Below, one piece after another: positions 3,799 to 59,152 of a stretch of 64,000 nucleotides of DNA. A program made the position numbers and the translations under genes. Every line of letters starts with the position of its first letter. The first letter of the stretch is position 1. The DNA lies in assembly GCF_030013595.1 (NCBI RefSeq), contig NZ_CP122768.1. The stretch is one strand, 5' to 3'. This stretch comes from Escherichia coli. Lineage in GTDB: Bacteria > Pseudomonadota > Gammaproteobacteria > Enterobacterales > Enterobacteriaceae. The notes beneath the pieces were generated by a model. The model had not been told where the DNA came from, searched no databases, and saw nothing but the letters and a program-made list of their open reading frames with translations.

Positions 3799-3872
3799 GT
3801 GAGGAGACAGGAATTGCCGGAAATAGTAGTCTGCTAAGTGAAGCGCATCAGGCAATTTCGCAAATCGCAGAT

Positions 3873-3902
3873 AGCAAAAAAGCGCCTTTAGGGCGCTTTT
3901 TT
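3873..3902. terminator. bidirectional rho-independent terminator (xapR on one side, tRNA operon on the other)
   Basis: GC hairpin agcgcc-ttta-gggcgct flanked by A-run upstream and T-run downstream. Confidence 0.6.
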
Positions 3903-28791: not shown

Positions 28792-29067
28792 CTATCGCAC
28801 AGGATGAATAAGATAATTCGCCTTTGTCGGAAAAGGGGGCGTGATGTCTTCTGTGAGATTTAATGGTGGCGCATCTTCTCTCATCTTAAACAAAATCGCC
28901 TGTGATGGCTGAAGTTTTGTAGAATGAGTTGTCGTCATCACTGACGTTTTTTCTGTCTCTTTATAGCTCGTCTCACTTCCACCACCAGAAATGGAAAATG
29001 CAAAAACATTGCATGCCATAATAGAGACCAATAAAAATAAGCTAAAAAGCATTAAGTTTACTTTCAT
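28792..29067 (-). CDS. ypdI: putative lipoprotein
   Basis: 91-aa ORF with lipoprotein signal peptide (LVSIMAC). Confidence 0.8.
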   Translation of the reverse strand: MKVNLMLFSLFLLVSIMACNVFAFSISGGGSETSYKETEKTSVMTTTHSTKLQPSQAILFKMREDAPPLNLTEDITPPFPTKANYLIHPVR

Positions 29068-29362
29068 AGAAAGTTATCCTGAGAATGGCTCACTGAGAAC
29101 CTACGATGTTATGGCTGTATTTACATTTAATTAATCAGTATTTACATCGATATAATAAATGACATCTCTTTGTGGTATATAAGAATAGTTCTCTGCGACA
29201 GGAAGCATATTCCTACAATTGTAAGACTAAAATACTTCTTGCGATAATAACTACAACTGTAAGATAACCCTTTCAAAATGACCGTTGCTCTCTGATTTCT
29301 CATTTCATGCTCACCCAATATGATGGCGGCGTTTTCTAAAACTGTTAAAGAATGAGGTAAGT

Positions 29363-29995
29363 ATGAAACGTTTAATTATGGCTACGATGGTCACAGCAAT
29401 TCTGGCATCTTCAACTGTATGGGCGGCTGATAATGCACCGGTAGCGGCACAACAGCAAACTCAGCAAGTTCAGCAAACCCAGAAAACGGCAGCAGCAGAG
29501 CGTATCTCTGAACAAGGTTTATATGCGATGCGTGACGTGCAGGTAGCGCGCCTGGCTCTGTTTCATGGCGATCCGGAAAAGGCAAAAGAACTGACCAATG
29601 AAGCTTCAGCTTTGTTGTCAGATGACAGTACCGAATGGGCAAAGTTCGCTAAGCCAGGTAAAAAAACCAATGTCAATGATGACCAATATATTGTCATTAA
29701 TGCATCTATCGGAATTTCTGAGAGTTATGTAGCGACACCCGAAAAAGAAGCCGCGATAAAAATTGCCAACGAAAAAATGGCGAAAGGGGATAAAAAGGGC
29801 GCAATGGAAGAGCTTCGCCTGGCCGGTGTTGGCGTAATGGAAAACCAATATCTGATGCCGCTCAAACAGACTCGTAATGCACTTGCTGATGCGCAGAAAC
29901 TGCTTGATAAAAAGCAATACTACGAGGCAAACCTGGCGCTTAAAGGTGCGGAAGATGGAATCATCGTCGATAGCGAAGCACTGTTTGTGAACTAA
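29363..29995 (+). CDS. yfdX: periplasmic YfdX-family protein (EvgA regulon)
   Basis: 210-aa ORF with signal peptide; synteny with frc and oxc. Confidence 0.9.
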
Positions 29996-36571: not shown

Positions 36572-39500
36572 TTAGTCATTTTGTTGACAGAAAACAGCTA
36601 TCTCCTGGTCCAGCTCTGCAATGTGTTCTTTAACAGAGTTCAGCAGCTGAAGAATTTCAGGCTTACTGTCATCTGAAACAGGTGTTATTTCTAACTGATG
36701 GCTAATATTAATCAACTTTTGCAAATTCAGGATGTTAGCCGCACCGTGGATGCGATGAATACACTGATGGAAAGTTCTGTTGTCGCCAGCTTCTAGTGCA
36801 TGAAACGCAGCGGGTAGATCTTTATGCGTTTCATGCTGGAAAGTCATGAGAATCTCCTGCATCAGTTGTAGATCGTTCGCCGTATTATTTTTCAGGGCCT
36901 CGATATCAAGGTGGCGATACTGAGGTGCAATAGGCGCAACCTGGTGTAACTGACTTAAATGTGTTTTCAGTACATCCAGGGTCAACGGTTTGAACAAACA
37001 TAAGTTCATGCCGCAATTTAACCCTTTTTCACGTTCGTTAGCCTGTGCGTTGGCTGTAAGCCCCCAGATGGGTAAGGCCGAATTTTGCTCACGGAGTTTG
37101 CGAGTCAACTCAAAACCATCCATATTCGGCATATTAACGTCAGTAATAAGCAGATCATAATGTTGCATACTGACTTTGTGTAGCGCTTGCACACCATCAG
37201 TGGCTTCATCAACATCATATCCTAATAGATTTAGCTGGCGTTTGAGTAATAGCCTGTTGGTCGGATGATCATCCGCGATTAATATGCTCAACTTTTCAGG
37301 GAGTGTCATAGGTTGTTCTGCTTTTGCCTCGACAGTCGCCACTTGTTGGGTAATTTCTACCGGGATTGTGATCGTAAATGTCGTTCCTATGCCTGGATGA
37401 CTTTCTAATGACAAATCGCCCTGCATGTTTTTAATTAATTCTTTGCAGATCATTAAGCCTAAACCAGAACCTGTTTGCTGACGACCTGCACTTGTTTGGC
37501 TATAGCGTTTAAACAGTTGTTGTTGTTCTTCCTGCGATAATCCACTTCCAGAATCCATAATCGTCATTTTGATTACAGCGTGGTTGTCATCAATGTTAAC
37601 CAGGGAGGTCGTAATTTTTACTGCCCCCTCGGTGGTAAATTTGAGAGCATTGCTCAGTAAATTAGATAAGACCTGCTTAAACGCCTGAGGGTCGATCTTA
37701 ACCAGGTAATGTTCAGGAAACGTACTGCTGCAACTTAATGCGATGGATTTGCTTGCAGCAATCGCACCGAAAGAGTGACAAGTGTTCTGGACTAAAGTAG
37801 GGATATCGACCCATTGTGGTTGAAGTTGATAGTTACCCGACTCAATTTTGTCGACATCAAGGATTTCACCAATTAAGCCGAGGAGTGATTGTCCGGTGGC
37901 GTAGGCAAGTGAAATCGCCTCCACCCGTTGTTCCTTGCTAAGACCAGAACCCGACAGAAGTTCCAGGAAGCCCATAATGGAGCTTATTGGTGTTCTTATT
38001 TCGTGACTCATTGTTGCCAGAAACTGACTTTTTGCGACAGTTGCATTGATCGCTTTATTTCTCTCTACTTCGAGAGCGTGAATTAAATCACGTGTCTCGG
38101 TAATATCTTGCCAACCACAAATATAAACAGCATGATCGCTGGCTGGCAGATTGCATAATGTATGCCAGTGATTAATGCATCTTTTCTCGATGCCATTATC
38201 AATTTCAAATACCTGTGTGTATATTGTTCGATTTTCTTTCGTTTCTGCTGTGACTTCATGCGCATTAGAAAAAACATCTTTAAAGGGTGAGTCACTGTTT
38301 TCTAATGGTAACATTGCATTTTTGTAGTAATCCGCAGTGAAATAATGTTCAAAAGCACTATTATGACTAATGACATTACCTTGCCAGTTTACAACATAAG
38401 TTGGATTCGGTAAGGAATCCGAGAGTGCTTTTCGGAATGATATTTGGTTTTCTAAATCACCCTGAATGACTTTACGACGACGAACTGAGCGTAACAGGTA
38501 GAATCCCCATAAAAGGCTACTGCCAACTAATAAAACGGATAATGTCGTGACAATATAAAATTGCTCGCTATAGAGGTCCCATGTGTCAATGGTCACATTG
38601 GGCATTTTAATCCATTTTTCCGTCAGGCGCAGAACTTCGCTTGGGGGAATTGCATTCAGAGCTTTATTAATAATATCCTTAAGTTCCGGTTCTCCGCGAG
38701 GAAAAGCGAACGAAAGCGATGCATTCTGAACGCCGGGAATAAGAAAATGATAAAGTTCATTAGGATAGTAATGGTCGATCATGTAACGCGAATTTAGCTG
38801 TGTCGCGACCAGAGCATCAAGTTCACCTTCCTTGACCTTGTGAAATGCAGCGCTGGCGTTATCGACTTTTATCCACTCTACCTCCGGATACATCTCTTTT
38901 AATTGCGAATGCAGCTCATAATAATATGGAATGGCAACTTTCATTCCTTTTTTTAATGTTTGTTCACTGTCAGGCGCTTTTTGCATGACAAAAACGTAAG
39001 GCGTTGTTATGAAGGCTTCAGCAAATAAAACATTATTTTCTCTATCTTCACTATAAATAGCACCGGGTAATATATCCCATCCGCCGGGATTCAGCTGTGT
39101 TCCAGCATGGATATTGTGTGAAACGGTGATCGGAGAAAAATTTAAACCTGTTTGCAAGGTAATAATATTAAGAATATCCCCCATAACGCCCCGAACCGAG
39201 CCATTTTCATCCGTCATAGAATAGGGAGGGGAGTAAGGATTTTCCAACACCTTTAAATCGGGATGCTGCTTAATCCACTGTTTTTCATGTTCAGTGAGTT
39301 CTAATGGTTTGTTCAGAAAGGCCAGGTTTCCTGTATCAAGCCAATTTTGTGATACTTCATAGCGAACTTCGTTTGTCAAAGCATCAACAAATCGATTGAG
39401 TACTTCATTAAGAACGACAGATTCTTTTCTGGTCAAGAAAAAATTATATTGACGCGGTGAGTTATAATATTTCACTACATTTAAGGAGTGAGTGAAATAG

Positions 39501-40165
39501 CGGGAAATCATACTGCTGGTAATAATGTTACTACCAATAAAGTAATCATTCTGTCCGGCTGAGACGGATGCTAATGCCTGATATAAATTTGTAAAAGAGA
39601 TAATTGTTGCTTTTGGAAATGATTGATGAATTACCTCATCTGGAGGGTAATTTGCTACCCGAGCAATATTTACTGGTTTTGATGAGGTAAGCGGTCTCAT
39701 TGAATCGTGAAGGGTGGTGACCAGCGCCGGAAAGGTAATTATCAGCGGTTTGGTTGCAGCAATGTCATCATTAAGAGGCGGCGAAGCAACTAAATGTGAT
39801 AACACTATATCGACTTCCCCTTCTGTAAGCGCGTCCATTGCTTTTTGATGATCTGCGTATTCCCGGAGTGTTAATTTGATATTTAACGCTCTTTTTAAAA
39901 GATTTAAATAATCAGCATTAATACCACGAACCCGTTGCTGCGAATCGGTACGCAACAAAGTAGCCGTTTGGGACTTGTGTACTGCAATCACAAGATTTTT
40001 TTTGCTCGCTAACCAACGTAATTCCTTGTTGCTCAGACGTAGTGGATCAAGCGTGACACGGTTGTTACTACTGATGCCACGATATTCGATGTAATCTTCG
40101 TCTGCGAAACTTATAGTCGACCAAAGACCACAACAGAGAAGAATAATATAGGGTAAAAACTTCAT
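36572..40165 (-). CDS. evgS: hybrid sensor histidine kinase (periplasmic SBP-like domains, HisKA, REC, HPt)
   Basis: 1197-aa ORF. Confidence 0.95.
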   Translation of the reverse strand: MKFLPYIILLCCGLWSTISFADEDYIEYRGISSNNRVTLDPLRLSNKELRWLASKKNLVIAVHKSQTATLLRTDSQQRVRGINADYLNLLKRALNIKLTLREYADHQKAMDALTEGEVDIVLSHLVASPPLNDDIAATKPLIITFPALVTTLHDSMRPLTSSKPVNIARVANYPPDEVIHQSFPKATIISFTNLYQALASVSAGQNDYFIGSNIITSSMISRYFTHSLNVVKYYNSPRQYNFFLTRKESVVLNEVLNRFVDALTNEVRYEVSQNWLDTGNLAFLNKPLELTEHEKQWIKQHPDLKVLENPYSPPYSMTDENGSVRGVMGDILNIITLQTGLNFSPITVSHNIHAGTQLNPGGWDILPGAIYSEDRENNVLFAEAFITTPYVFVMQKAPDSEQTLKKGMKVAIPYYYELHSQLKEMYPEVEWIKVDNASAAFHKVKEGELDALVATQLNSRYMIDHYYPNELYHFLIPGVQNASLSFAFPRGEPELKDIINKALNAIPPSEVLRLTEKWIKMPNVTIDTWDLYSEQFYIVTTLSVLLVGSSLLWGFYLLRSVRRRKVIQGDLENQISFRKALSDSLPNPTYVVNWQGNVISHNSAFEHYFTADYYKNAMLPLENSDSPFKDVFSNAHEVTAETKENRTIYTQVFEIDNGIEKRCINHWHTLCNLPASDHAVYICGWQDITETRDLIHALEVERNKAINATVAKSQFLATMSHEIRTPISSIMGFLELLSGSGLSKEQRVEAISLAYATGQSLLGLIGEILDVDKIESGNYQLQPQWVDIPTLVQNTCHSFGAIAASKSIALSCSSTFPEHYLVKIDPQAFKQVLSNLLSNALKFTTEGAVKITTSLVNIDDNHAVIKMTIMDSGSGLSQEEQQQLFKRYSQTSAGRQQTGSGLGLMICKELIKNMQGDLSLESHPGIGTTFTITIPVEITQQVATVEAKAEQPMTLPEKLSILIADDHPTNRLLLKRQLNLLGYDVDEATDGVQALHKVSMQHYDLLITDVNMPNMDGFELTRKLREQNSALPIWGLTANAQANEREKGLNCGMNLCLFKPLTLDVLKTHLSQLHQVAPIAPQYRHLDIEALKNNTANDLQLMQEILMTFQHETHKDLPAAFHALEAGDNRTFHQCIHRIHGAANILNLQKLINISHQLEITPVSDDSKPEILQLLNSVKEHIAELDQEIAVFCQQND

Positions 40166-40169
40166 GTGG

Positions 40170-40784
40170 TTAGCCGATTTTGTTACGTTGTGCGAATGTG
40201 TAAAGATCCATCAGTGATTTACATTCTAATTTTTCCATCAGGCGACTTTTATAAGTGCTGACAGTTTTGTTGCTGATGAACATTTTTTCCGCAATGTCAT
40301 TATTATCCTTGCCATCAAGAATATATCGCATGACACTAATTTCTTGTTTCGATAAGGAGTCGAGTTTTTGCTGGTCGGACGTTAAACTTCCAACAAACCG
40401 GTTGAGAGAGAAGGGGAAATAGCAGTAGCCATTTTTTGCAGCTTCAATAGCCGCAATGATATTGTTCATGCCTTCTTTTTTACTCACGAATCCATTAGCG
40501 CCAGCATCAGCACAATGTTTCCCGTAAAAATGGTCATTTTTAGCGGAGACGATAATAATAATTCCGCTATATTGGCGCTTCCTCAGCGTTTCTAACACCT
40601 GGATACCGTTAACTCCGGGGATATCGACATCAATGATGACGATATCAGGTTTAAGTGTTTCCACCCGCTGAACGGCACTTCCCCCTTCAGTCAACTCCGC
40701 TAAGATTTCAATATCGTTTTTGATCAATAAATTACGAATTGCTGCGATAGCAAGAGGATGGTCATCAATAATTATTGCGTTCAT
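40170..40784 (-). CDS. evgA: NarL/FixJ-family response regulator
   Basis: 204-aa ORF with REC and LuxR-type HTH. Confidence 0.95.
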   Translation of the reverse strand: MNAIIIDDHPLAIAAIRNLLIKNDIEILAELTEGGSAVQRVETLKPDIVIIDVDIPGVNGIQVLETLRKRQYSGIIIIVSAKNDHFYGKHCADAGANGFVSKKEGMNNIIAAIEAAKNGYCYFPFSLNRFVGSLTSDQQKLDSLSKQEISVMRYILDGKDNNDIAEKMFISNKTVSTYKSRLMEKLECKSLMDLYTFAQRNKIG

Positions 40785-41199
40785 AGATTATTCCCTTGGC
40801 AATGAAGCATCTCCCTTCTCCCTGTAGTAATACAGACATAAGGCATCATCTCATTTTCTCAATAAAAATAAGAAAATTTGAGCTTCCTTTAAGATAATTC
40901 GACAAGTATACCATATAAATAGTCGGCATAAATGAAATGTCAACAATAAAATCAGGGATTGTACCGATGATTTATAGTTTCACATTAGCACTATAAGTCT
41001 TCTCACTAATCCTACATGCGTAAGAATTGTATTGCAAAAGCTACGGTTTAGTCCTCTGTTGTTTTTTTTGCACCTCATTTAAATTAGGCCTCCAACGTTC
41101 CTGGGACAATGTGCAACACATGCACTGTGTTTGATATGAAGAATGAATACTCTTTTCATTCAATTCATAAATTTCATCTATGCGAAATGAGAGATAATA

Positions 41200-42363
41200 G
41201 TGGAACAGATTAATTCAAATAAAAAACATTCTAACAGAAGAAAATACTTTTCTTTATTGGCGGTAGTTTTATTTATTGCGTTTTCAGGTGCCTATGCCTA
41301 TTGGTCAATGGAATTAGAAGACATGATTAGTACAGATGATGCCTATGTCACGGGGAATGCAGATCCAATTTCTGCACAAGTTTCAGGCAGCGTCACTGTC
41401 GTTAATCATAAAGATACGAACTACGTTCGACAGGGTGACATTTTAGTCTCACTGGATAAGACTGATGCCACTATCGCACTCAATAAAGCTAAAAATAATC
41501 TGGCAAATATTGTTCGGCAAACGAATAAACTGTACTTACAGGATAAACAATACAGTGCCGAAGTCGCTTCAGCACGTATTCAGTATCAACAATCTTTAGA
41601 AGATTATAACCGTCGTGTGCCTTTAGCGAAGCAGGGGGTTATTTCAAAAGAAACGCTGGAGCATACCAAAGATACGTTAATAAGTAGCAAAGCGGCATTG
41701 AATGCCGCTATCCAGGCTTATAAAGCGAATAAAGCTTTAGTAATGAACACACCATTAAACCGTCAGCCACAAGTCGTTGAAGCTGCGGATGCAACCAAAG
41801 AAGCCTGGTTGGCGCTTAAACGTACGGATATTAAGAGTCCGGTTACCGGCTATATTGCCCAGCGAAGTGTTCAGGTCGGCGAAACAGTGAGTCCCGGACA
41901 ATCGTTAATGGCTGTCGTACCGGCACGTCAAATGTGGGTTAATGCTAACTTTAAAGAAACACAACTCACGGATGTACGGATTGGTCAATCGGTCAATATT
42001 ATCAGCGATCTTTATGGTGAAAATGTTGTGTTTCATGGTCGGGTGACAGGGATCAATATGGGAACCGGCAATGCGTTCTCCTTATTACCTGCACAAAATG
42101 CGACAGGGAACTGGATCAAAATCGTTCAGCGTGTACCGGTTGAAGTTTCTCTTGATCCAAAAGAACTCATGGAACATCCCTTACGTATTGGTTTATCGAT
42201 GACAGCAACTATTGATACGAAGAACGAAGACATTGCCGAGATGCCTGAGCTGGCTTCAACCGTGACGTCCATGCCTGCTTATACCAGTAAGGCTTTAGTT
42301 ATCGATACCAGTCCGATAGAAAAAGAAATTAGCAACATTATTTCGCATAATGGACAACTTTAA
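41200..42363 (+). CDS. emrK: multidrug efflux membrane fusion protein
   Basis: 387-aa ORF, GTG start, HlyD-family. Confidence 0.9.
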   Translation: MEQINSNKKHSNRRKYFSLLAVVLFIAFSGAYAYWSMELEDMISTDDAYVTGNADPISAQVSGSVTVVNHKDTNYVRQGDILVSLDKTDATIALNKAKNNLANIVRQTNKLYLQDKQYSAEVASARIQYQQSLEDYNRRVPLAKQGVISKETLEHTKDTLISSKAALNAAIQAYKANKALVMNTPLNRQPQVVEAADATKEAWLALKRTDIKSPVTGYIAQRSVQVGETVSPGQSLMAVVPARQMWVNANFKETQLTDVRIGQSVNIISDLYGENVVFHGRVTGINMGTGNAFSLLPAQNATGNWIKIVQRVPVEVSLDPKELMEHPLRIGLSMTATIDTKNEDIAEMPELASTVTSMPAYTSKALVIDTSPIEKEISNIISHNGQL

Positions 42364-49453: not shown

Positions 49454-50701
49454 ATGGCACTGAATATTCCATTCAGAAATGCGTACTATCGTTTGGCATC
49501 CAGTTACTCATTTCTCTTTTTTATTTCCTGGTCGCTGTGGTGGTCGTTATACGCTATTTGGCTGAAAGGACATCTAGGATTAACAGGGACGGAATTAGGT
49601 ACACTTTATTCGGTCAACCAGTTTACCAGCATTCTATTTATGATGTTCTACGGCATCGTTCAGGATAAACTCGGTCTGAAGAAACCGCTCATCTGGTGTA
49701 TGAGTTTCATTCTGGTCTTGACCGGACCGTTTATGATTTACGTTTATGAACCGTTACTGCAAAGCAATTTTTCTGTAGGTCTAATTCTGGGGGCGCTCTT
49801 TTTTGGCCTGGGGTATCTGGCGGGATGCGGTTTGCTTGACAGCTTCACCGAAAAAATGGCGCGAAATTTTCATTTCGAATATGGAACAGCGCGCGCCTGG
49901 GGATCTTTTGGCTATGCTATTGGCGCGTTCTTTGCCGGTATATTTTTTAGTATCAGTCCCCATATCAACTTCTGGTTGGTCTCGCTATTTGGCGCTGTAT
50001 TTATGATGATCAACATGCGTTTTAAAGATAAGGATCACCAGTGCATAGCGGCGGATGCGGGAGGGGTAAAAAAAGAGGATTTTATCGCAGTTTTCAAGGA
50101 TCGAAACTTCTGGGTTTTCGTCATATTTATTGTGGGGACGTGGTCTTTCTATAACATTTTTGATCAACAACTCTTTCCTGTCTTTTATGCAGGTTTATTC
50201 GAATCACACGATGTAGGAACGCGCCTGTATGGTTATCTCAACTCATTCCAGGTGGTACTCGAAGCGCTGTGCATGGCGATTATTCCTTTCTTTGTGAATC
50301 GGGTAGGGCCAAAAAATGCATTACTTATCGGTGTTGTGATTATGGCGTTGCGTATCCTTTCCTGCGCGTTGTTCGTTAACCCCTGGATTATTTCATTAGT
50401 GAAGCTGTTACATGCCATTGAGGTTCCACTTTGTGTCATATCCGTCTTCAAATACAGCGTGGCAAACTTTGATAAGCGCCTGTCGTCGACGATCTTTCTG
50501 ATTGGTTTTCAAATTGCCAGTTCGCTTGGGATTGTGCTGCTTTCAACGCCGACTGGGATACTCTTTGACCACGCAGGCTACCAGACAGTTTTCTTCGCAA
50601 TTTCGGGTATTGTCTGCCTGATGTTGCTATTTGGCATTTTCTTCCTGAGTAAAAAACGCGAGCAAATAGTTATGGAAACGCCTGTACCTTCAGCAATATA
50701 G
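49454..50701 (+). CDS. cscB: sucrose:H+ symporter (MFS, LacY-like)
   Basis: 415-aa 12-TM ORF. Confidence 0.9.
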   Translation: MALNIPFRNAYYRLASSYSFLFFISWSLWWSLYAIWLKGHLGLTGTELGTLYSVNQFTSILFMMFYGIVQDKLGLKKPLIWCMSFILVLTGPFMIYVYEPLLQSNFSVGLILGALFFGLGYLAGCGLLDSFTEKMARNFHFEYGTARAWGSFGYAIGAFFAGIFFSISPHINFWLVSLFGAVFMMINMRFKDKDHQCIAADAGGVKKEDFIAVFKDRNFWVFVIFIVGTWSFYNIFDQQLFPVFYAGLFESHDVGTRLYGYLNSFQVVLEALCMAIIPFFVNRVGPKNALLIGVVIMALRILSCALFVNPWIISLVKLLHAIEVPLCVISVFKYSVANFDKRLSSTIFLIGFQIASSLGIVLLSTPTGILFDHAGYQTVFFAISGIVCLMLLFGIFFLSKKREQIVMETPVPSAI

Positions 50702-51143
50702 ACGTAAACTTTTTCCGGTTGTTGTCGATATCTCCATATCCCTCAACCGGAAAATAATAATACAAAAATGCTTAGCCCAACTAATAATCACCTAATCCAA
50801 ACGCCTCATTCATGTTCTGGTACAGTCGCTCAAATGTACTCCGGATACGCGGTTCGCTGATTTCCAGGACATTGTCGTCATTCAGCGACCTGTCCCGAGT
50901 ATCACGGGCCTGCGAATTCATCAAGGAATGCATTGCAGAGTGAAGTATCGAGTCACGCCATATTTCGCTATCAGGATTCTGTATGATGGTTACATCGCCC
51001 GGCCCAGGGCTGTTTAGTCATCAGCGCTTTCTGACAGTGCTGAGATTTCAACCTGTTGCAGTAAAAATGAGTAGATATAGGGCAAGTGTGCTGCCAAACC
51101 CATCTTTTACGGGGTGAAGGTAGATTTGGTTTGAAGGGTATCT

Positions 51144-51158
51144 GGTGTCCCCTGCAGA
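51144..51158. other. putative prophage att core (attR): 15-nt identity to the 3' end of tRNA-Arg argW
   Basis: Minus strand reads CTGCAGGGGACACCA, matching the argW 3' terminus as recalled, without the rest of the tRNA; lies about 70 bp from the torI-like gene. Confidence 0.45.
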
Positions 51159-51230
51159 CATCTACTTGAGGCGGCAGGGGATTGATTGGAATGGTGTTTT
51201 TTAGATGTGAAAAATATTTTACCCGCTATT

Positions 51231-51431
51231 TTACCCATTGGCGCGGCTTAAGAGCTTATTTTTGAATTCACAATGGTCACGATATAACCATCTTGCTCGC
51301 CCGTGGATAACTTTGGCTTTTGGCAGGTCGCCGGACTTAATCCGGTCATAGATGAAGGTTTTACCGAATCCAGTATCGGCCATGATGAATTTCAAATCAA
51401 CCAGTGAATCAGGCTGTAGTTCGTGTTGCAT
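51231..51431 (-). CDS. torI: AlpA/Xis-family excisionase (recombination directionality factor), TorI-like
   Basis: 66-aa ORF at the prophage edge next to the att core; size and position match KplE1 TorI; identity from recall. Confidence 0.6.
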   Translation of the reverse strand: MQHELQPDSLVDLKFIMADTGFGKTFIYDRIKSGDLPKAKVIHGRARWLYRDHCEFKNKLLSRANG

Positions 51432-51562
51432 GAGTGCTATCTCCGAATAGGGAATCGAACCTGCAAATCAGGCAATAAAAAACCGCCATCAGGCGGCTTG
51501 GTGTTCTTTCAGTTCTTCAATTCGAATATTGGTTACATTGTTTTAATATATGAATAAATAAA

Positions 51563-51775
51563 TTAGCTTTTTTCGTTGCCTTCGCGTTCTTTATTAATTT
51601 TAACAAACTCGTTTTTACCACGCTCTCCAAATGCGTCTTTAGAGTCGTTGTATCCGCAATCGCAGCACACATAATCACCAGACCATCCACGCATTGTTTT
51701 TTCTTTTGCAATATTTCCAGAACCGCATTTTGGACAAGACATATCACTACCTCCAAAGCATGAGTGAGATGACAA
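51563..51775 (-). CDS. small Cys-rich zinc-finger protein (lambda Ea8.5 position)
   Basis: 70-aa ORF with CPKCGSG...CCDCGYN zinc-ribbon-like motifs. Confidence 0.4.
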   Translation of the reverse strand: MSSHSCFGGSDMSCPKCGSGNIAKEKTMRGWSGDYVCCDCGYNDSKDAFGERGKNEFVKINKEREGNEKS

Positions 51776-51838
51776 CGTAACATTGATTGGAGATTAACAA
51801 TAGATTGCTGATGTAAAAGATATGTATAAGCTTCGCTT

Positions 51839-52393
51839 TCAAAGTGGAGGCTCTGGTAGCGGCATCCAGTGTGACGGCTCACATACCACCTCAACACCGT
51901 TCATGTAAAAGAATTGAAATAACCCTTTACCTTTGTGAAACCCTACCATCTGCTCTTTTGTGTCTGAACAATAAACCAAAACATCTTCTTCGTTTGGCAT
52001 CCACTCACTACAGCTTATCCAACCATCTGGAATTACCGGAGAGTTGCCCGACATCTCATTCAACTTGTAAGTCTGGCTTACAGGTTTGGCTTCCAGTTCT
52101 GCAATGCGCTTACCTCCATCCGCGATTACTCCCTCGTAATATTCACGCTGCTCGTTGAGTTTTGATTTTGCTTCCTCAAGCTCAACTCTCAGCTTCCCTA
52201 CCGTTAGCGCAATATCCTCGTTCTCCTGGTCACGGCGTTTGATGTATTGCTGGTTTCTTTCCCGTTCATCCAGCAGTTCCAGCACAATCGATGGTGTTAC
52301 CAATTCATGGAAAAGGTCTGCGTCAAATCCCCAGTCGTCATGCATTGCCTGCTCTGCCGCTTCACGCAGTGCCTGAGAGTTAATTTCGCTCAC
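51839..52393 (-). CDS. Ead/Ea22-like early protein (DUF551-type)
   Basis: 184-aa ORF at the Ea22 position of the lambda early-left operon. Confidence 0.55.
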   Translation of the reverse strand: MSEINSQALREAAEQAMHDDWGFDADLFHELVTPSIVLELLDERERNQQYIKRRDQENEDIALTVGKLRVELEEAKSKLNEQREYYEGVIADGGKRIAELEAKPVSQTYKLNEMSGNSPVIPDGWISCSEWMPNEEDVLVYCSDTKEQMVGFHKGKGLFQFFYMNGVEVVCEPSHWMPLPEPPL

Positions 52394-52611
52394 TTCGAAC
52401 CTCTCTGTTTACTGATAAGTTCCAGATCCTCCTGGCAACTTGCACAAGTCCGACAACCCTGAACGGCCAAGCGTCTTCGTTCATCTATCGGATCGCCACA
52501 CTCACAACAATGAGTGGCAGATATAGCCTGGTGGTTCAGGCGGCGCATTTTTATTGCTGTGTTGCGCTGTAATTCTTCAATTTCTGATGCTGAATCAATG
52601 ATGTCTGCCAT
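52390..52611 (-). CDS. TraR/DksA-family C4 zinc-finger protein
   Basis: 73-aa ORF with CxxC-17-CxxC motif (CCECGDPIDERRRLAVQGCRTCASC). Confidence 0.55.
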   Translation of the reverse strand: MADIIDSASEIEELQRNTAIKMRRLNHQAISATHCCECGDPIDERRRLAVQGCRTCASCQEDLELISKQRGSK

Positions 52612-52709
52612 CTTTCATTAATCCCTGAATTGTTGGTTAATACGCTTGAGGGTGAATGCGAATAATAAAAAAGGAGCCTGTAGCTCCATGATGATTTTGT
52701 TTTTCATGC

Positions 52710-55184: not shown

Positions 55185-55328
55185 TTAGTGAATGCTTTTG
55201 CTTGATCTCAGTTTCAGCATTAATATCCATTTTTTATAAGCGTCGACGGCTTCACGAAACATCTTTTCATCGCCAATAAAAGTGGCGATAGTGAATTTAG
55301 TCTGGATAGCCATAAGTGTTTGATCCAT
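55185..55328 (-). CDS. kil: host-killing protein Kil
   Basis: 47-aa [12 protein letters not shown]... within ORF 55185-55454; overlaps cIII by 32 nt as in lambda. Confidence 0.8.
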
Positions 55329-55461
55329 TTTTTGGGACTCCTGGCTGATTAAGTATGTCGATAAGGCGTTTCCATCCGTCACGTAATTTACGGGTGATTC
55401 GTTCAAGTAAAGATTCGGAAGGGCAGCCAGCAACAGGCCACCCTGCAATGGCATATTGCAT
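55297..55461 (-). CDS. cIII: cIII (FtsH protease inhibitor)
   Basis: Manual translation gives [54 protein letters not shown] (54 aa); below ORF-track cutoff. Confidence 0.85.
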   Translation of the reverse strand: MQYAIAGWPVAGCPSESLLERITRKLRDGWKRLIDILNQPGVPKNGSNTYGYPD

Positions 55462-55533
55462 GGTGTGCTCCTTATTTATACATAACGAAAAACGCCTCGA
55501 GTGAAGCGTTATTGGTATGCGGTAAAGCCGCGC

Positions 55534-55845
55534 TTAGGCGGCTGATGTTTCTTCTTTCAGGCTTTCGAGATATTTACGTGGGTCGTCGTAACATTGGCAT
55601 TCGCTGTACCAATCCACCCAGCGATCAGTAAGCCCCACCTCTGATAAATCTTCATCGGTAAGGCTCTCATCCCACATCTCAAGGCCGTTAGCATTGCAGT
55701 AATCAGGCTTGATGTTGTTGTCATACTGAAAGGCGTCATAATCAGCCAGTGCGTCCATCAGGCGAACACCCTCTTCAACACTTGCCACTTCTACAATGAA
55801 CGGCTTCATAGGTACTTGCGGGATATGCCAGACACGTAATTTCAT
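55534..55845 (-). CDS. hypothetical acidic protein (lambda ea10 position)
   Basis: 103-aa ORF, strongly acidic, Trp/Cys-containing. Confidence 0.5.
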   Translation of the reverse strand: MKLRVWHIPQVPMKPFIVEVASVEEGVRLMDALADYDAFQYDNNIKPDYCNANGLEMWDESLTDEDLSEVGLTDRWVDWYSECQCYDDPRKYLESLKEETSAA

Positions 55846-55989
55846 ATTTCCTCCGTCAAAAAAATGCCCTCACACTGGAGGGCAAAGAAGATTTCCAATA
55901 ATCAGAACAAGTCGGCTCCTGTTTAGTTACGAGCGACATTGCTCCGTGTATTCACTCGTTGGAATGAATACACAGTGCTTATTCGCAGC

Positions 55990-56316
55990 CTACATAATCA
56001 TTCCGGTTATTATTACCATTTCAATATCGCTATCTTTCATAATGATTGGAGTTGAGTTATCAACTTTACTTTTACTCCATTTTCCTGCATCAGTTTTTAC
56101 CGCTCCACAATAAGAAAGCCAATCATCATCACAATGTTCTGGATCACTAATTCTGACAAGAACACGTGATAGTGCTTTTTCGATACTTTCATCACAATTA
56201 GCATTTGTGTAATTGCCGTGAGACAATTTCAAATCGTTAACTTCATCTTCATTGGCATCAAAAATATAGATTTCAGTCGACTCTGGAACATTTTCATAAA
56301 CCATTAAAACTTTCAT
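55990..56316 (-). CDS. hypothetical protein, AT-rich moron-like gene
   Basis: ORF 55990-56397; likely start ATG 56316 (MKVLMVYENVPE...) after GGGG RBS; low GC relative to flanks. Confidence 0.45.
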   Translation of the reverse strand: MKVLMVYENVPESTEIYIFDANEDEVNDLKLSHGNYTNANCDESIEKALSRVLVRISDPEHCDDDWLSYCGAVKTDAGKWSKSKVDNSTPIIMKDSDIEMVIITGMIM

Positions 56317-56356
56317 TTTTACCCCATATTGTTTATGCCAAAAATAAAGGCCACCA

Positions 56357-56557
56357 TTAGGCAGCCTTGTTGTTCTGTTTACCAAGTTCTCTGGCAATCA
56401 TTGCCGTCGTTCGTATTGCCCATTTATCGACATATTTCCCATCTTCCATTACAGGAAACATTTCTTCAGGCTTAACCATGCATTCCGATTGCAGCTTGCA
56501 TCCATTGCATCGTTTGAATTGTCCACACCATTGATTTGTATCAATAGTCGTAGTCAT
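56357..56557 (-). CDS. ral: Ral-like small Cys-rich protein (restriction alleviation), tentative
   Basis: 66-aa ORF with CGQFKRCNGC motif at the ral position and size; identity from recall. Confidence 0.5.
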   Translation of the reverse strand: MTTTIDTNQWCGQFKRCNGCKLQSECMVKPEEMFPVMEDGKYVDKWAIRTTAMIARELGKQNNKAA

Positions 56558-56627
56558 ACGGATAGTCCTGGTATTGTTCCATCACATCCTGAGGATGCTC
56601 TTCGAACTCTTCAAATTCTTCTTCCAT
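56541..56627 (-). CDS. possible 28-aa acidic leader peptide (MEEEFEEFEEHPQDVMEQYQDYPYDYDY)
   Basis: Short ORF with strong GAGGTGA RBS 6 nt upstream of ATG; its stop overlaps the ral-like start. Confidence 0.25.
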   Translation of the reverse strand: MEEEFEEFEEHPQDVMEQYQDYPYDYDY

Positions 56628-56685
56628 ATCTCACCTCAAATAAGTGGTTTGCTGCCTAATTTCATTTTCTGGCGACCAACACAAG

Positions 56686-56958
56686 TCATCTTGCTGTCAG
56701 CTGTTTGGATTTCCTGTAGCCTGCCGCGTAAATGGCTACATTTGGAAGACAAGTTGAGCCTTCATATTTTCTGGTCAACGTTGTCAGTGTTATTACTTCT
56801 GCTCTCATTACTGGTTTGCGTTTGCATTGTAAGACCACTCGTGAAGGGGTTGGCCTGTGTAGCTTGTCAGAGCTGATCGCCTCCTGACTTTGCAGGTTTG
56901 CACGACGAGCTCTACGGCGAGAAGCTGCGGTGCCTTTAAATTCTGTTTTTCTGGACAT
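56686..56958 (-). CDS. N-like transcription antiterminator (P22 gene 24 type)
   Basis: ORF 56686-57030; start refined to ATG 56958 after GGGAGGA RBS; arginine-rich motif AASRRRARRANLQ; C-terminus ...IYAAGYRKSKQLTAR. Confidence 0.75.
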   Translation of the reverse strand: MSRKTEFKGTAASRRRARRANLQSQEAISSDKLHRPTPSRVVLQCKRKPVMRAEVITLTTLTRKYEGSTCLPNVAIYAAGYRKSKQLTAR

Positions 56959-57056
56959 AGATTCCTCCCGAATAAACTTTGGCGATGCAATCTCGAAGCT
57001 CCTCCTGAGACGGTTGCTTCGGCATTGCATCCCACAGCTTATATGGTTGGGTGATC

Positions 57057-57177: not shown

Positions 57178-57397
57178 TACAATTTGTTCTAAAATGGGGT
57201 GATTTTTTATAACGCTTTGTATTTAATAGTGTTGTTTTTTAGCGTGGGTGTATCGCCTCGGCGATGTAAGGAGAGATCAGAATTGCGTGGTTTAGTGAGT
57301 TGTATCTATTTATTTTTCAATAAATACATTTGGTTATGTGTCTTTAGGTGGGGGCGTGAGGCAAAGAAAACCCGGCTCGGTGGCCGGGTTGATGGGA

Positions 57398-58255
57398 TTA
57401 TCGTTTATTTCTTTGATGTTTCTTTGCTGACTCAGCTTGAGTGTTTCCATACCTGCGTTTACCGCTATTGTTTTTTCCTCTAGGCTTGCCTTTTTTTCGA
57501 TCTTCCCACCAGTCAGGTGCCGGGTCTGGCTCAACATGTAAAGCATCGGCAAGTCCTGATATCAAGCTGTATGACTGAACTCCATCAATGTGCTCTGACA
57601 GTGATGGGGTAACATTCTGTCTTAGTGGATCAAGAATAAAATCAATACCTTTAATTCTGGCGTGTTTGGCGGCAGGCACAAAGTCTGAGTCCCCAGCAAC
57701 AAGGACAATTACATCAACAAGTTTTTCATAAGCTAAAGTCGTGATATCCATCCCTAGCTTGATATCAACTTGTTTTTGTTTGATGTCATAGTAAAAATCA
57801 TCATTTGTCAGTTCATCCCATTTTTTCGTTCCTTTCATCAGAGCATCAAGGGAGAATGTAGTTAGTTGCCATCGCTTATTATCAACAAGATTCCCTAATC
57901 TTAAGGCTGTTTTTCGAGTTTTTCTTAACTCTTCATGCAGCTCCGTTCTCAGAATATATGATTTTTCGAGTTTGAAATTCTTGCGACCAGGCGTCTTATT
58001 GCCAGGCTCAGGAAGTGGAAGGCGTGTTTGAATGTCGAGTGGTGGACAGTCATAGAAGTAAATTCTATAAAGCTCAAGCGGTTCCCTACGTTCTTGTGAT
58101 TGACGTTTTCCATTAAGATGGGAAAGAACCATTGACCATATTACTTTCATTATGCATTGCGCAGTCAGTTCATGCTCGGCGAAGTGTTTACGATGCGTAG
58201 CATGAACACGCTGCATGAAAAAACCCGCATCAATTAAAATTGCTGCTTTCTTCAT
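57398..58255 (-). CDS. NYN/LabA-like (PIN-fold) nuclease-domain protein with Lys/Arg-rich C-terminal tail; candidate prophage exclusion/defence protein in the rex position
   Basis: 285-aa ORF: N-terminal AILIDAGFF and central VLVAGDSDFVPAAKHARIKGIDF NYN-type motifs; basic tail; between cI and pL/N; AT-rich. Confidence 0.75.
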   Translation of the reverse strand: MKKAAILIDAGFFMQRVHATHRKHFAEHELTAQCIMKVIWSMVLSHLNGKRQSQERREPLELYRIYFYDCPPLDIQTRLPLPEPGNKTPGRKNFKLEKSYILRTELHEELRKTRKTALRLGNLVDNKRWQLTTFSLDALMKGTKKWDELTNDDFYYDIKQKQVDIKLGMDITTLAYEKLVDVIVLVAGDSDFVPAAKHARIKGIDFILDPLRQNVTPSLSEHIDGVQSYSLISGLADALHVEPDPAPDWWEDRKKGKPRGKNNSGKRRYGNTQAESAKKHQRNKR

Positions 58256-58382: not shown

Positions 58383-59036
58383 TCACCCAAACGTCTCTTC
58401 AGGCCACTGACTAGCGATAACTTTCCCCACAACGGAACAACTCTCATTGCATGGGATCATTGGGTATTGTGGGTTTAGTGGCTGTAGAAACACCTGACCG
58501 CTATCCCTGATCAGTTTCTTGAAGGTAAACTCATCACCACCAAGTCTGGCTATACAGAAATCGCCTGGCTCAACAGCCTGCTCAGGGTCAACCAGAATTA
58601 ACATCCCGTCAGGAAAGCTGGGCTTGGATCCTGTTGGTGCGGTCATGGAATTACCTTCAACCTCAAGCCAGAATGCAGAGCCACTGGCTTTTTTGGTTGT
58701 GCTTACCAATCTCTCCGCATCGCCTTTGGTAAAGGTTCTGAGTTCTGGAGAGAACATCCCAGCCTGAACATGAGAAAATACAGGGTACTCATATTGTTTT
58801 TTAACTGGGGCCGATGAGTATTCGCCAACAGGTGAAAATGTCCCGTCGTGGTTGAATGATATGTTATCAATACCAAGGTATTTAAACACCACACCAATAT
58901 CACTAAGAGATGGATGACGAGATCCGCGCAACCAGTGTCCAATCCCACCCTGCGTCATACCTAGCTCTTCGGCTAACTTCTCTTGAGTTATGCCGAGCTC
59001 TTTCATTCTGGATCTAGCCAGTTCATACCATTTCAT
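58383..59036 (-). CDS. cI: cI-type prophage repressor (HTH plus S24 LexA-like peptidase domain)
   Basis: ORF 58383-59084; probable start ATG 59036 ([10 protein letters not shown]...) 7 nt after AAGGA; C-terminal GNSMTAP...KKL...PLNPQYPMI autocleavage domain. Confidence 0.85.
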
Positions 59037-59152
59037 TTTCATGTCCTTATTATTACGCTCTGTACTGGAACCATCAATGCACAATGTGTATTTTTGCTTG
59101 TATTTGGAAAGTACATATTGTATTTTTTATTCGAGGTTACTATGGAGGGCAT

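Follow-up and report, generated by a model that had tools for sequence, protein, structure and literature searches.

A P22 gene 17 orthologue and an uncharacterised orphan-fold gene in the N-cIII interval of a lambda-like Escherichia coli prophage

Organization of the early-left operon

The DNA analysed here, called the window, is a stretch of 64,000 nucleotides from Escherichia coli. It contains the early-left operon of a lambda-like prophage, which is read on the minus strand, in the order cI, a NYN-domain gene, N, ral, gene 2, gene 1, cIII, kil, gam, bet and exo. A preliminary description had placed two small early-left genes in the interval between cIII and ral, and both open reading frames and their flanking genes were found as described (Table 1). 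An Rfam scan of the interval showed no non-coding RNA besides the cIII RNA thermoregulator.

Table 1. Features of the early-left interval, with positions in the window
Feature	Position	Strand	Description
cI	58383-59084		
N	56686-57030	-	phrog_271
ral (restriction alleviation)	56357-56557	-	phrog_1055, E 1.9e-49; 97% DNA identity to lambda (blastn)
Terminator-like hairpin over ral stop codon	56347-56368	-	Directly upstream of gene 2 cassette; terminator scan
Gene 2 cassette	55979-56328	-	350 bp, single ORF, 33.4% GC; junctions by alignment and blastn against lambda
Gene 2	55990-56316	-	108-aa acidic protein; family phrog_4658; orphan fold
Second hairpin	55946-55973	-	GTGTATTCA-10 nt-TGAATACAC; read from the sequence; just downstream of gene 2 cassette
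Intrinsic-terminator-like hairpin, gap between gene 2 and gene 1	55865-55884	-	GCCCTC-cagtgt-GAGGGC, then T7; terminator scan
ea10-replacing segment	55543-55858		Lambda homology stops at 55542 and restarts at 55859 (blastn)
Gene 1	55534-55845	-	103-aa acidic protein; Pfam GP17, PF17420; phrog_1510; in the lambda ea10 position
Terminator-like hairpin, gene 1 3' end	55526-55543		Terminator scan; P22 has an annotated terminator there
cIII RNA thermoregulator	55416-55474	-	Rfam RF01804, 88.5 bits; intact, at cIII start
cIII	55297-55461	-	From ORF list; 98.5% identity to lambda

The prophage DNA in this part of the window is 97-98% identical to that of the best-matching complete E. coli genomes. 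The 1.2-kb arrangement of ral, gene 2, gene 1 and cIII was found in none of 5426 complete E. coli genomes at a coverage of at least 80%. In E. coli prophages the same slot holds GP17, DUF2528/Ea10, DUF7446, Nmad5, coiled-coil proteins and others. The N-cIII interval is thus a typical lambdoid mosaic hotspot with many alternative cassettes, as had been proposed.

The absence of sieB from between ral and N, also remarked on earlier, was borne out: the roughly 130 nt that separate the end of ral at 56557 from N at 56686 hold no sieB-like ORF. In lambda and P22, sieB lies between ral and N on the opposite strand. The prophage therefore lacks the SieB exclusion function of these phages.

The N gene itself is of another type than that of lambda: DNA homology to lambda reaches no further than 56652, and the N ORF matches phrog_271 only over residues 21-113. 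Between N and cI, in the position of lambda rexA/rexB, lies the NYN (PIN-like nuclease) gene (57398-58255, minus strand), which encodes a basic protein of 285 aa and is accompanied by a terminator-like hairpin at 57369-57390. It matches Pfam NYN with E 1e-8 and phrog_5783 (function not known), and has weak PADLOC matches to HEC-09 and NYN. Matches were found in 274 of the 5426 E. coli genomes, 73 of them full length, and in a related prophage the position is taken by an SDH-family Clp-fold serine proteinase. On these matches the NYN gene is a candidate prophage-expressed defence nuclease.

On the other side of the operon, the arm beyond exo could be followed in a locus of a closely matching E. 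coli genome (L010) that corresponds to about 50000-52700 of the window. There it adjoins a chromosomal gene for an oligosaccharide MFS transporter, torI and a gene for a GGDEF-domain protein; no integrase is annotated in that locus. Elsewhere in the window, 350-nt windows with a GC content of 36% or less occur at 81-621, 2551-2961, 28831-29421, 38101-41511 and 51501-51851, and these five segments may be further horizontally acquired islands.

Mosaic junctions and transcription signals

Comparison with lambda by blastn showed conserved blocks at 55200-55542 (kil/cIII, 98.5% identity), 55859-55978 (99.2%) and 56329-56652 (ral, 97%). The middle block is the lambda hairpin/terminator region between ea10 and ral. 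On one side of it lies the segment that replaces ea10 and on the other the gene 2 cassette, which takes the place of 16 bp that lambda has between ral and the conserved hairpins. Apart from the ORF, the cassette contains only a ribosome-binding site and 11 nt past the stop codon, the edge of the insert being 12 nt before the ATG. Of the 350-nt windows in the 64 kb, 99.4% are less AT-rich than the cassette (GC percentile 0.6%), in agreement with the earlier observation that gene 2 stands in an AT-rich segment.

Hairpins are found on both sides of gene 2. The hairpin at 55865-55884 lies in backbone common to lambda (99%) and P22 (83%), as judged by blastn and by alignment with lambda and E. coli SY038; we take it to be the counterpart of the lambda tL2-type terminator. 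The second hairpin, nearer to the cassette, also belongs to lambda-homologous backbone and is invariant in the alignment with lambda. On the upstream side, gene 2 of the window comes after ral, a hairpin and TTTATTTTTGGCATAAA; in SY038 a similar hairpin with TTTATTTTTGGCATAAA stands before gene 2, but there it follows an Nmad5-family gene (about 3860-3900 of locus L001). The likeness suggests that the hairpin region before gene 2 is a recombination joint for cassette exchange.

No sigma-70-like promoter was found between ral and the gene 2 ATG in a consensus scan, which weak promoters can escape. The minus-strand promoter-like site nearest to gene 2 (56024-55997) is inside the 3' end of its ORF. 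With hairpins on both sides of gene 2 and no promoter in front of it, both genes should rely on pL and on antitermination by N for their transcription. Unless N acts as an antiterminator here, as in lambda, the flanking hairpins would hold transcription down.

Gene 1, an orthologue of P22 gene 17

Gene 1 has the Shine-Dalgarno sequence GGAGG 5 nt before its ATG. The product has a pI of 4.14 and a net charge of -14, with 23 acidic (D+E) against 9 basic (K+R) residues, and contains four W, six Y and three Cys. The preliminary description of a highly acidic, W/Y-rich protein is therefore accurate except for the cysteines, of which it had counted two.

The whole protein belongs to a named family. 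Residues 1-98 match positions 1-98 of the 98-position Pfam model PF17420, "Superinfection exclusion gene product 17", with E 6.3e-55 (hmmscan), and phrog_1510, labelled "superinfection exclusion" in PHROG, is matched with E 4.3e-57. By tblastn the protein is 87.4% identical to the P22 gene 17 product over 103 of 103 residues (X15637.1, NC_002371.2), and it is 99% identical to copies in Stx phages such as the Stx1a phage EH2115. Judged by sequence, gene 1 is an orthologue of P22 gene 17 that replaces lambda ea10. It is already known in kind and by name. The earlier label "uncharacterised" for gene 1 falls with this homology to a characterised protein, the very finding that the preliminary description had named as a reason to withdraw it.

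The features that mark the GP17 family were defined from an alignment of 46 members. Fifteen residues are invariant and fall in the motifs IPQVP, YDxFQ, KPDYCN and WVDWY, which are kept across temperate and virulent phages, and the pI lies between 4.05 and 4.40 in all 46 of the aligned members. The acidic stretch of gene 1 at residues 60-73 and its C-terminal CQC are without conservation among the members. The AlphaFold2 model of gene 1 has a pLDDT of 92. Both genes are under purifying selection, since dN/dS is 0.135 for gene 1 when compared with P22 gene 17 and 0.07 for gene 2 when compared with an 82%-identical homologue.

Members of the family were found in 134 of the 5426 complete E. coli genomes. 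Phages that carry one include the P22-like phages, N4 (gp18), Bacillus SBSphiC and many Salmonella and Klebsiella phages of about 157 kb, which are the Kuttervirus of PMC9409062.

The RefSeq note on gene 17 of P22 reads "allows growth on phage Fels2 lysogen", and P22 requires gp17 to counteract a Fels-2 exclusion system (PMC9409062; PMC6486243). A literature search for a gp17 target or mechanism found no paper and gave only restatements of the classical Fels-2 phenotype. By analogy with the genetics of P22 gene 17, gene 1 is probably a counter-exclusion (anti-defence) gene. The common label "superinfection exclusion protein" is misleading because P22 genetics describes escape from exclusion; gene 1 shows that for the GP17 family the label points the wrong way.

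Gene 2, an orphan early gene

Gene 2 has a ribosome-binding site, GGGG, 5 nt before its ATG. The protein is also acidic, a point absent from the preliminary description, with a pI of 4.36 and a net charge of -11. The GC content of the gene is 33.0%, and 23.9% at third codon positions (GC3), against 47.9% for the whole window.

The start codon was assigned to the MKVL start of the 108-aa form, as in RefSeq; most aligned homologues start within one or two residues of it. A 135-aa form initiated at a TTG and extending to 56397 was rejected, since it overlaps ral. Residues 9-24 of the TTG extension (56317-56397, minus strand) match phrog_31828 with E 2e-7; the entries of this PHROG are probably small ORFs called in error where the hairpin covers the ral stop codon.

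The annotation of gene 2 goes no further than "hypothetical protein", and its family is equally unnamed. Residues 1-108 match positions 2-109 of the 109-position profile of phrog_4658, listed in PHROG as function not known, with E 2.4e-38. Relatives are few: only 59 at E of 1e-3 or lower among 1.84 billion representative proteins searched exhaustively with phmmer, and 17 proteins, each unnamed or "hypothetical", from 5.8 billion clusters searched with a profile. Pfam gave no match, either to the single sequence or to any of the 38 aligned members of the family, and PADLOC gave none. NCBIfam gave one sub-threshold ferredoxin match only, at 14 bits against a cut-off of 81. Sequence and profile searches of the PDB returned nothing below E 0.1. 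Of the earlier remark that neither protein has a function that can be named, the half that concerns gene 2 therefore stands with these searches, and the half that concerns gene 1 does not (P22 gene 17, PF17420).

Structure prediction, which had been proposed as a check, gave confident models for both proteins. The gene 2 model has a pLDDT of 97.1 and a pTM of 0.88. No structural neighbour outside its own family was found for it, nor any nucleic-acid-binding or enzyme fold. The family alignment showed conserved residues P11 and E12, H33-G34-x-Y36-x-N38, G78-x-W80 and T104-G105. Acidity is common to most members, and the median pI is 4.37. Gene 2 is thus an uncharacterised member of a small phage-only family with an orphan fold.

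The starts of the two families are alike, with an MK-hydrophobic strand-IP(E/Q) sequence and a beta-hairpin followed by a helix. The possibility that they are distant paralogues was rejected, the hhalign probability being 0.3%.

Distribution and genomic contexts of gene 2

Gene 2 is found in 15 of the 5426 complete E. coli genomes, and its occurrence among phages is patchy. In those genomes the upstream neighbour is ral or Nmad5. The downstream neighbour is gp17, DUF2528/Ea10, cIII itself, or a coiled-coil or TolA-like protein; gp17 follows gene 2 in one case, that of E. coli SY038. In two other lambdoid prophages, a copy with 82% identity (L008) lies between ral, together with a 67-aa ORF, and cIII, and a copy with 42% identity (L009) comes immediately after N.

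More distant relatives, with 28-35% identity, occur in about 100 phage isolates, those of Klebsiella, Enterobacter and Cronobacter among them. In lytic phages the relatives lie in early arrays of small genes. In RB16 the relative is beside ndd. In a large phage contig it is downstream of rIIA/rIIB, with dCMP deaminase nearby, and in another phage contig it is among genes for DNA ligase, dUTPase and RdgC. Across all the contexts examined the neighbours vary, and no constant neighbour was found that could hint at a partner of gene 2. Gene 1 and gene 2 assort independently and are not a two-gene system.

Interpretation

The reading that we favour, with moderate confidence, is that the locus carries two independent accessory genes of the pL operon, one being the gp17 counter-exclusion gene and the other an early binder for host takeover or counter-defence. 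By analogy with lambda and P22, the early-left operon would be N-antiterminated here, and both genes would be expressed early from pL. Gene 1 would allow an infecting phage to grow on lysogens of the P2-like Fels-2, the role established for P22 gene 17. We infer that it does so as a small acidic stoichiometric inhibitor that binds an exclusion effector encoded by the prophage or the host, because it is small, its acidity is conserved, it has no enzyme-like fold and its surface motif set is strongly conserved.

Gene 2 is a compositionally foreign cassette lodged between ral and a terminator-like hairpin that lambda also has. It would act early in lytic growth by binding a host or defence protein. 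This is proposed because the early position is constant in temperate and lytic phages, the acidity is conserved, the distribution is patchy and the slot is one in which cassettes are swapped. Many early phage genes have nothing to do with defence, and the position and acidity of gene 2 are circumstantial grounds for a counter-defence role. The conserved polar residues E12, H33, Y36, N38 and W80 might just as well belong to a catalytic site or a small-molecule pocket as to a protein interface.

The main rival for gene 2 is a role in phage DNA metabolism or in the takeover of host physiology, as an early accessory factor with no part in anti-defence; the DNA-mimic and moron readings are weaker. 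Neighbours in the lytic contigs point in this direction (DNA ligase, dUTPase and RdgC; ndd; dCMP deaminase and rIIB), and in the lambdoid prophages gene 2 lies in the operon of kil, gam, bet and exo. Against it, gene 2 is dispensable as well as rare, in E. coli genomes and among phages alike, and its slot swaps many alternative cassettes, a combination that suits arms-race genes better than core metabolism. The model, too, has neither a nucleic-acid-binding nor an enzyme fold. We consider this rival unlikely, though it has to be reckoned with.

It is improbable that the two proteins mimic DNA, or inhibit restriction enzymes or RecBCD directly in some other way, adding to the anti-restriction functions of ral and gam. 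The strong acidity of both proteins, conserved in each family, would suit such a role, as would the position of both genes near ral in the early operon and the presence of relatives in virulent phages that must face restriction. Of the features of the DNA mimics Ocr and ArdA, the strong negative charge is found (-14 and -11), and similarity in fold or sequence is not.

The preliminary description had called gene 2 a moron, and the foreign insertion that the word implies is real. As a true moron, gene 2 would be active in the repressed prophage and serve the host through lysogenic conversion or exclusion. Its GC content marks it as foreign, terminator-like hairpins bracket it, and lambda and P22 keep sieB in the N-cIII interval. 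The consensus scan, however, showed no promoter of its own upstream, the gene is co-oriented with pL, and the cassette has room for a ribosome-binding site, the ORF and a few nucleotides past the stop. Furthermore, relatives lie in the early arrays of strictly lytic T4-like and large phages, where lysogenic conversion is meaningless. This reading is accordingly very improbable. That one or both ORFs are chance frames or decayed remnants, as their shortness and the "hypothetical protein" annotation of gene 2 might suggest, can be dismissed in view of the low dN/dS values, the good ribosome-binding sites, the confident models and the conserved, full-length homologues of both families across distant phages.

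To return to the favoured reading of two independent accessory genes, a bolder form of it is possible but doubtful. Gene 2 would then found a counter-defence or host-takeover family with a fold not seen before, whose target would be a defence system or host factor beyond those that phages are known so far to attack. Such a family would be common to lambdoid prophages and, in Enterobacterales, to lytic phages of the T4-like and other large kinds, and the N-cIII interval would be a three-gene anti-defence island made up of gp17, ral and gene 2. Should gene 2 inhibit a defence system, a new inhibitor family would be named. In lambdoid phages the N-cIII interval is a slot in which counter-defence and exclusion genes are swapped, and knowledge of its contents helps to predict which prophage-borne or host defences a phage can overcome. 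As a protein of 108 aa with a confident model and an orphan fold, found in temperate and lytic phages, gene 2 is a small and readily handled candidate for anti-defence screening. The locus is mostly ordinary, with gene 2 as its one real unknown.

Comparison with known systems

Ocr, ArdA, Gam and Ral are small, early, acidic anti-defence proteins of phages encoded in accessory slots, and the likeness of genes 1 and 2 to them is one of functional analogy. Ral and Gam are encoded in the same operon as the two genes. No sequence or fold similarity of either protein to any of the four was found.

Lambda Ea10 (DUF2528) occupies the same slot as gene 1, with cIII on one side and, on the other, the conserved hairpins that follow ral. 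It is longer, with 122 aa against 103 aa, and its function is likewise poorly understood. Homology to Ea10 was rejected for both genes, as the preliminary description had supposed: the hhalign probability of both family profiles against lambda Ea10 was 0.4%, hence below 1% for either gene.

P22 gene 17 is the closest named counterpart of gene 1. The two have the same length and acidic character and the same slot, directly promoter-proximal to c3/cIII and with a terminator-like hairpin at the 3' end. The gene order is ral, orf78, orf87, 17, c3 in P22 and ral, gene 2, gene 1, cIII in the window. The backbones differ, that of P22 being of the erf/abc type, whereas that of the window is lambda-type with exo/bet/gam and a lambda-like cIII and ral. 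The C-terminal CQC of gene 1 is not a conserved GP17 family feature. P22 gene 17 belongs to a Salmonella phage and its Fels-2 phenotype comes from Salmonella, whereas the gene 1 copy is from E. coli and was compared by sequence.

The likeness of gene 2 is to the proteins of PHROG 4658, such as RB16p265 of Escherichia phage RB16 and the hypothetical proteins of Klebsiella phages of about 48 kb. The window copy is in a temperate lambdoid prophage, and its GC content of 33% compares with 41-43% in its lambdoid relatives. The PHROG 4658 proteins are 28-35% identical to gene 2 over 97-100% of its length and match it in size, acidity and early-region location.
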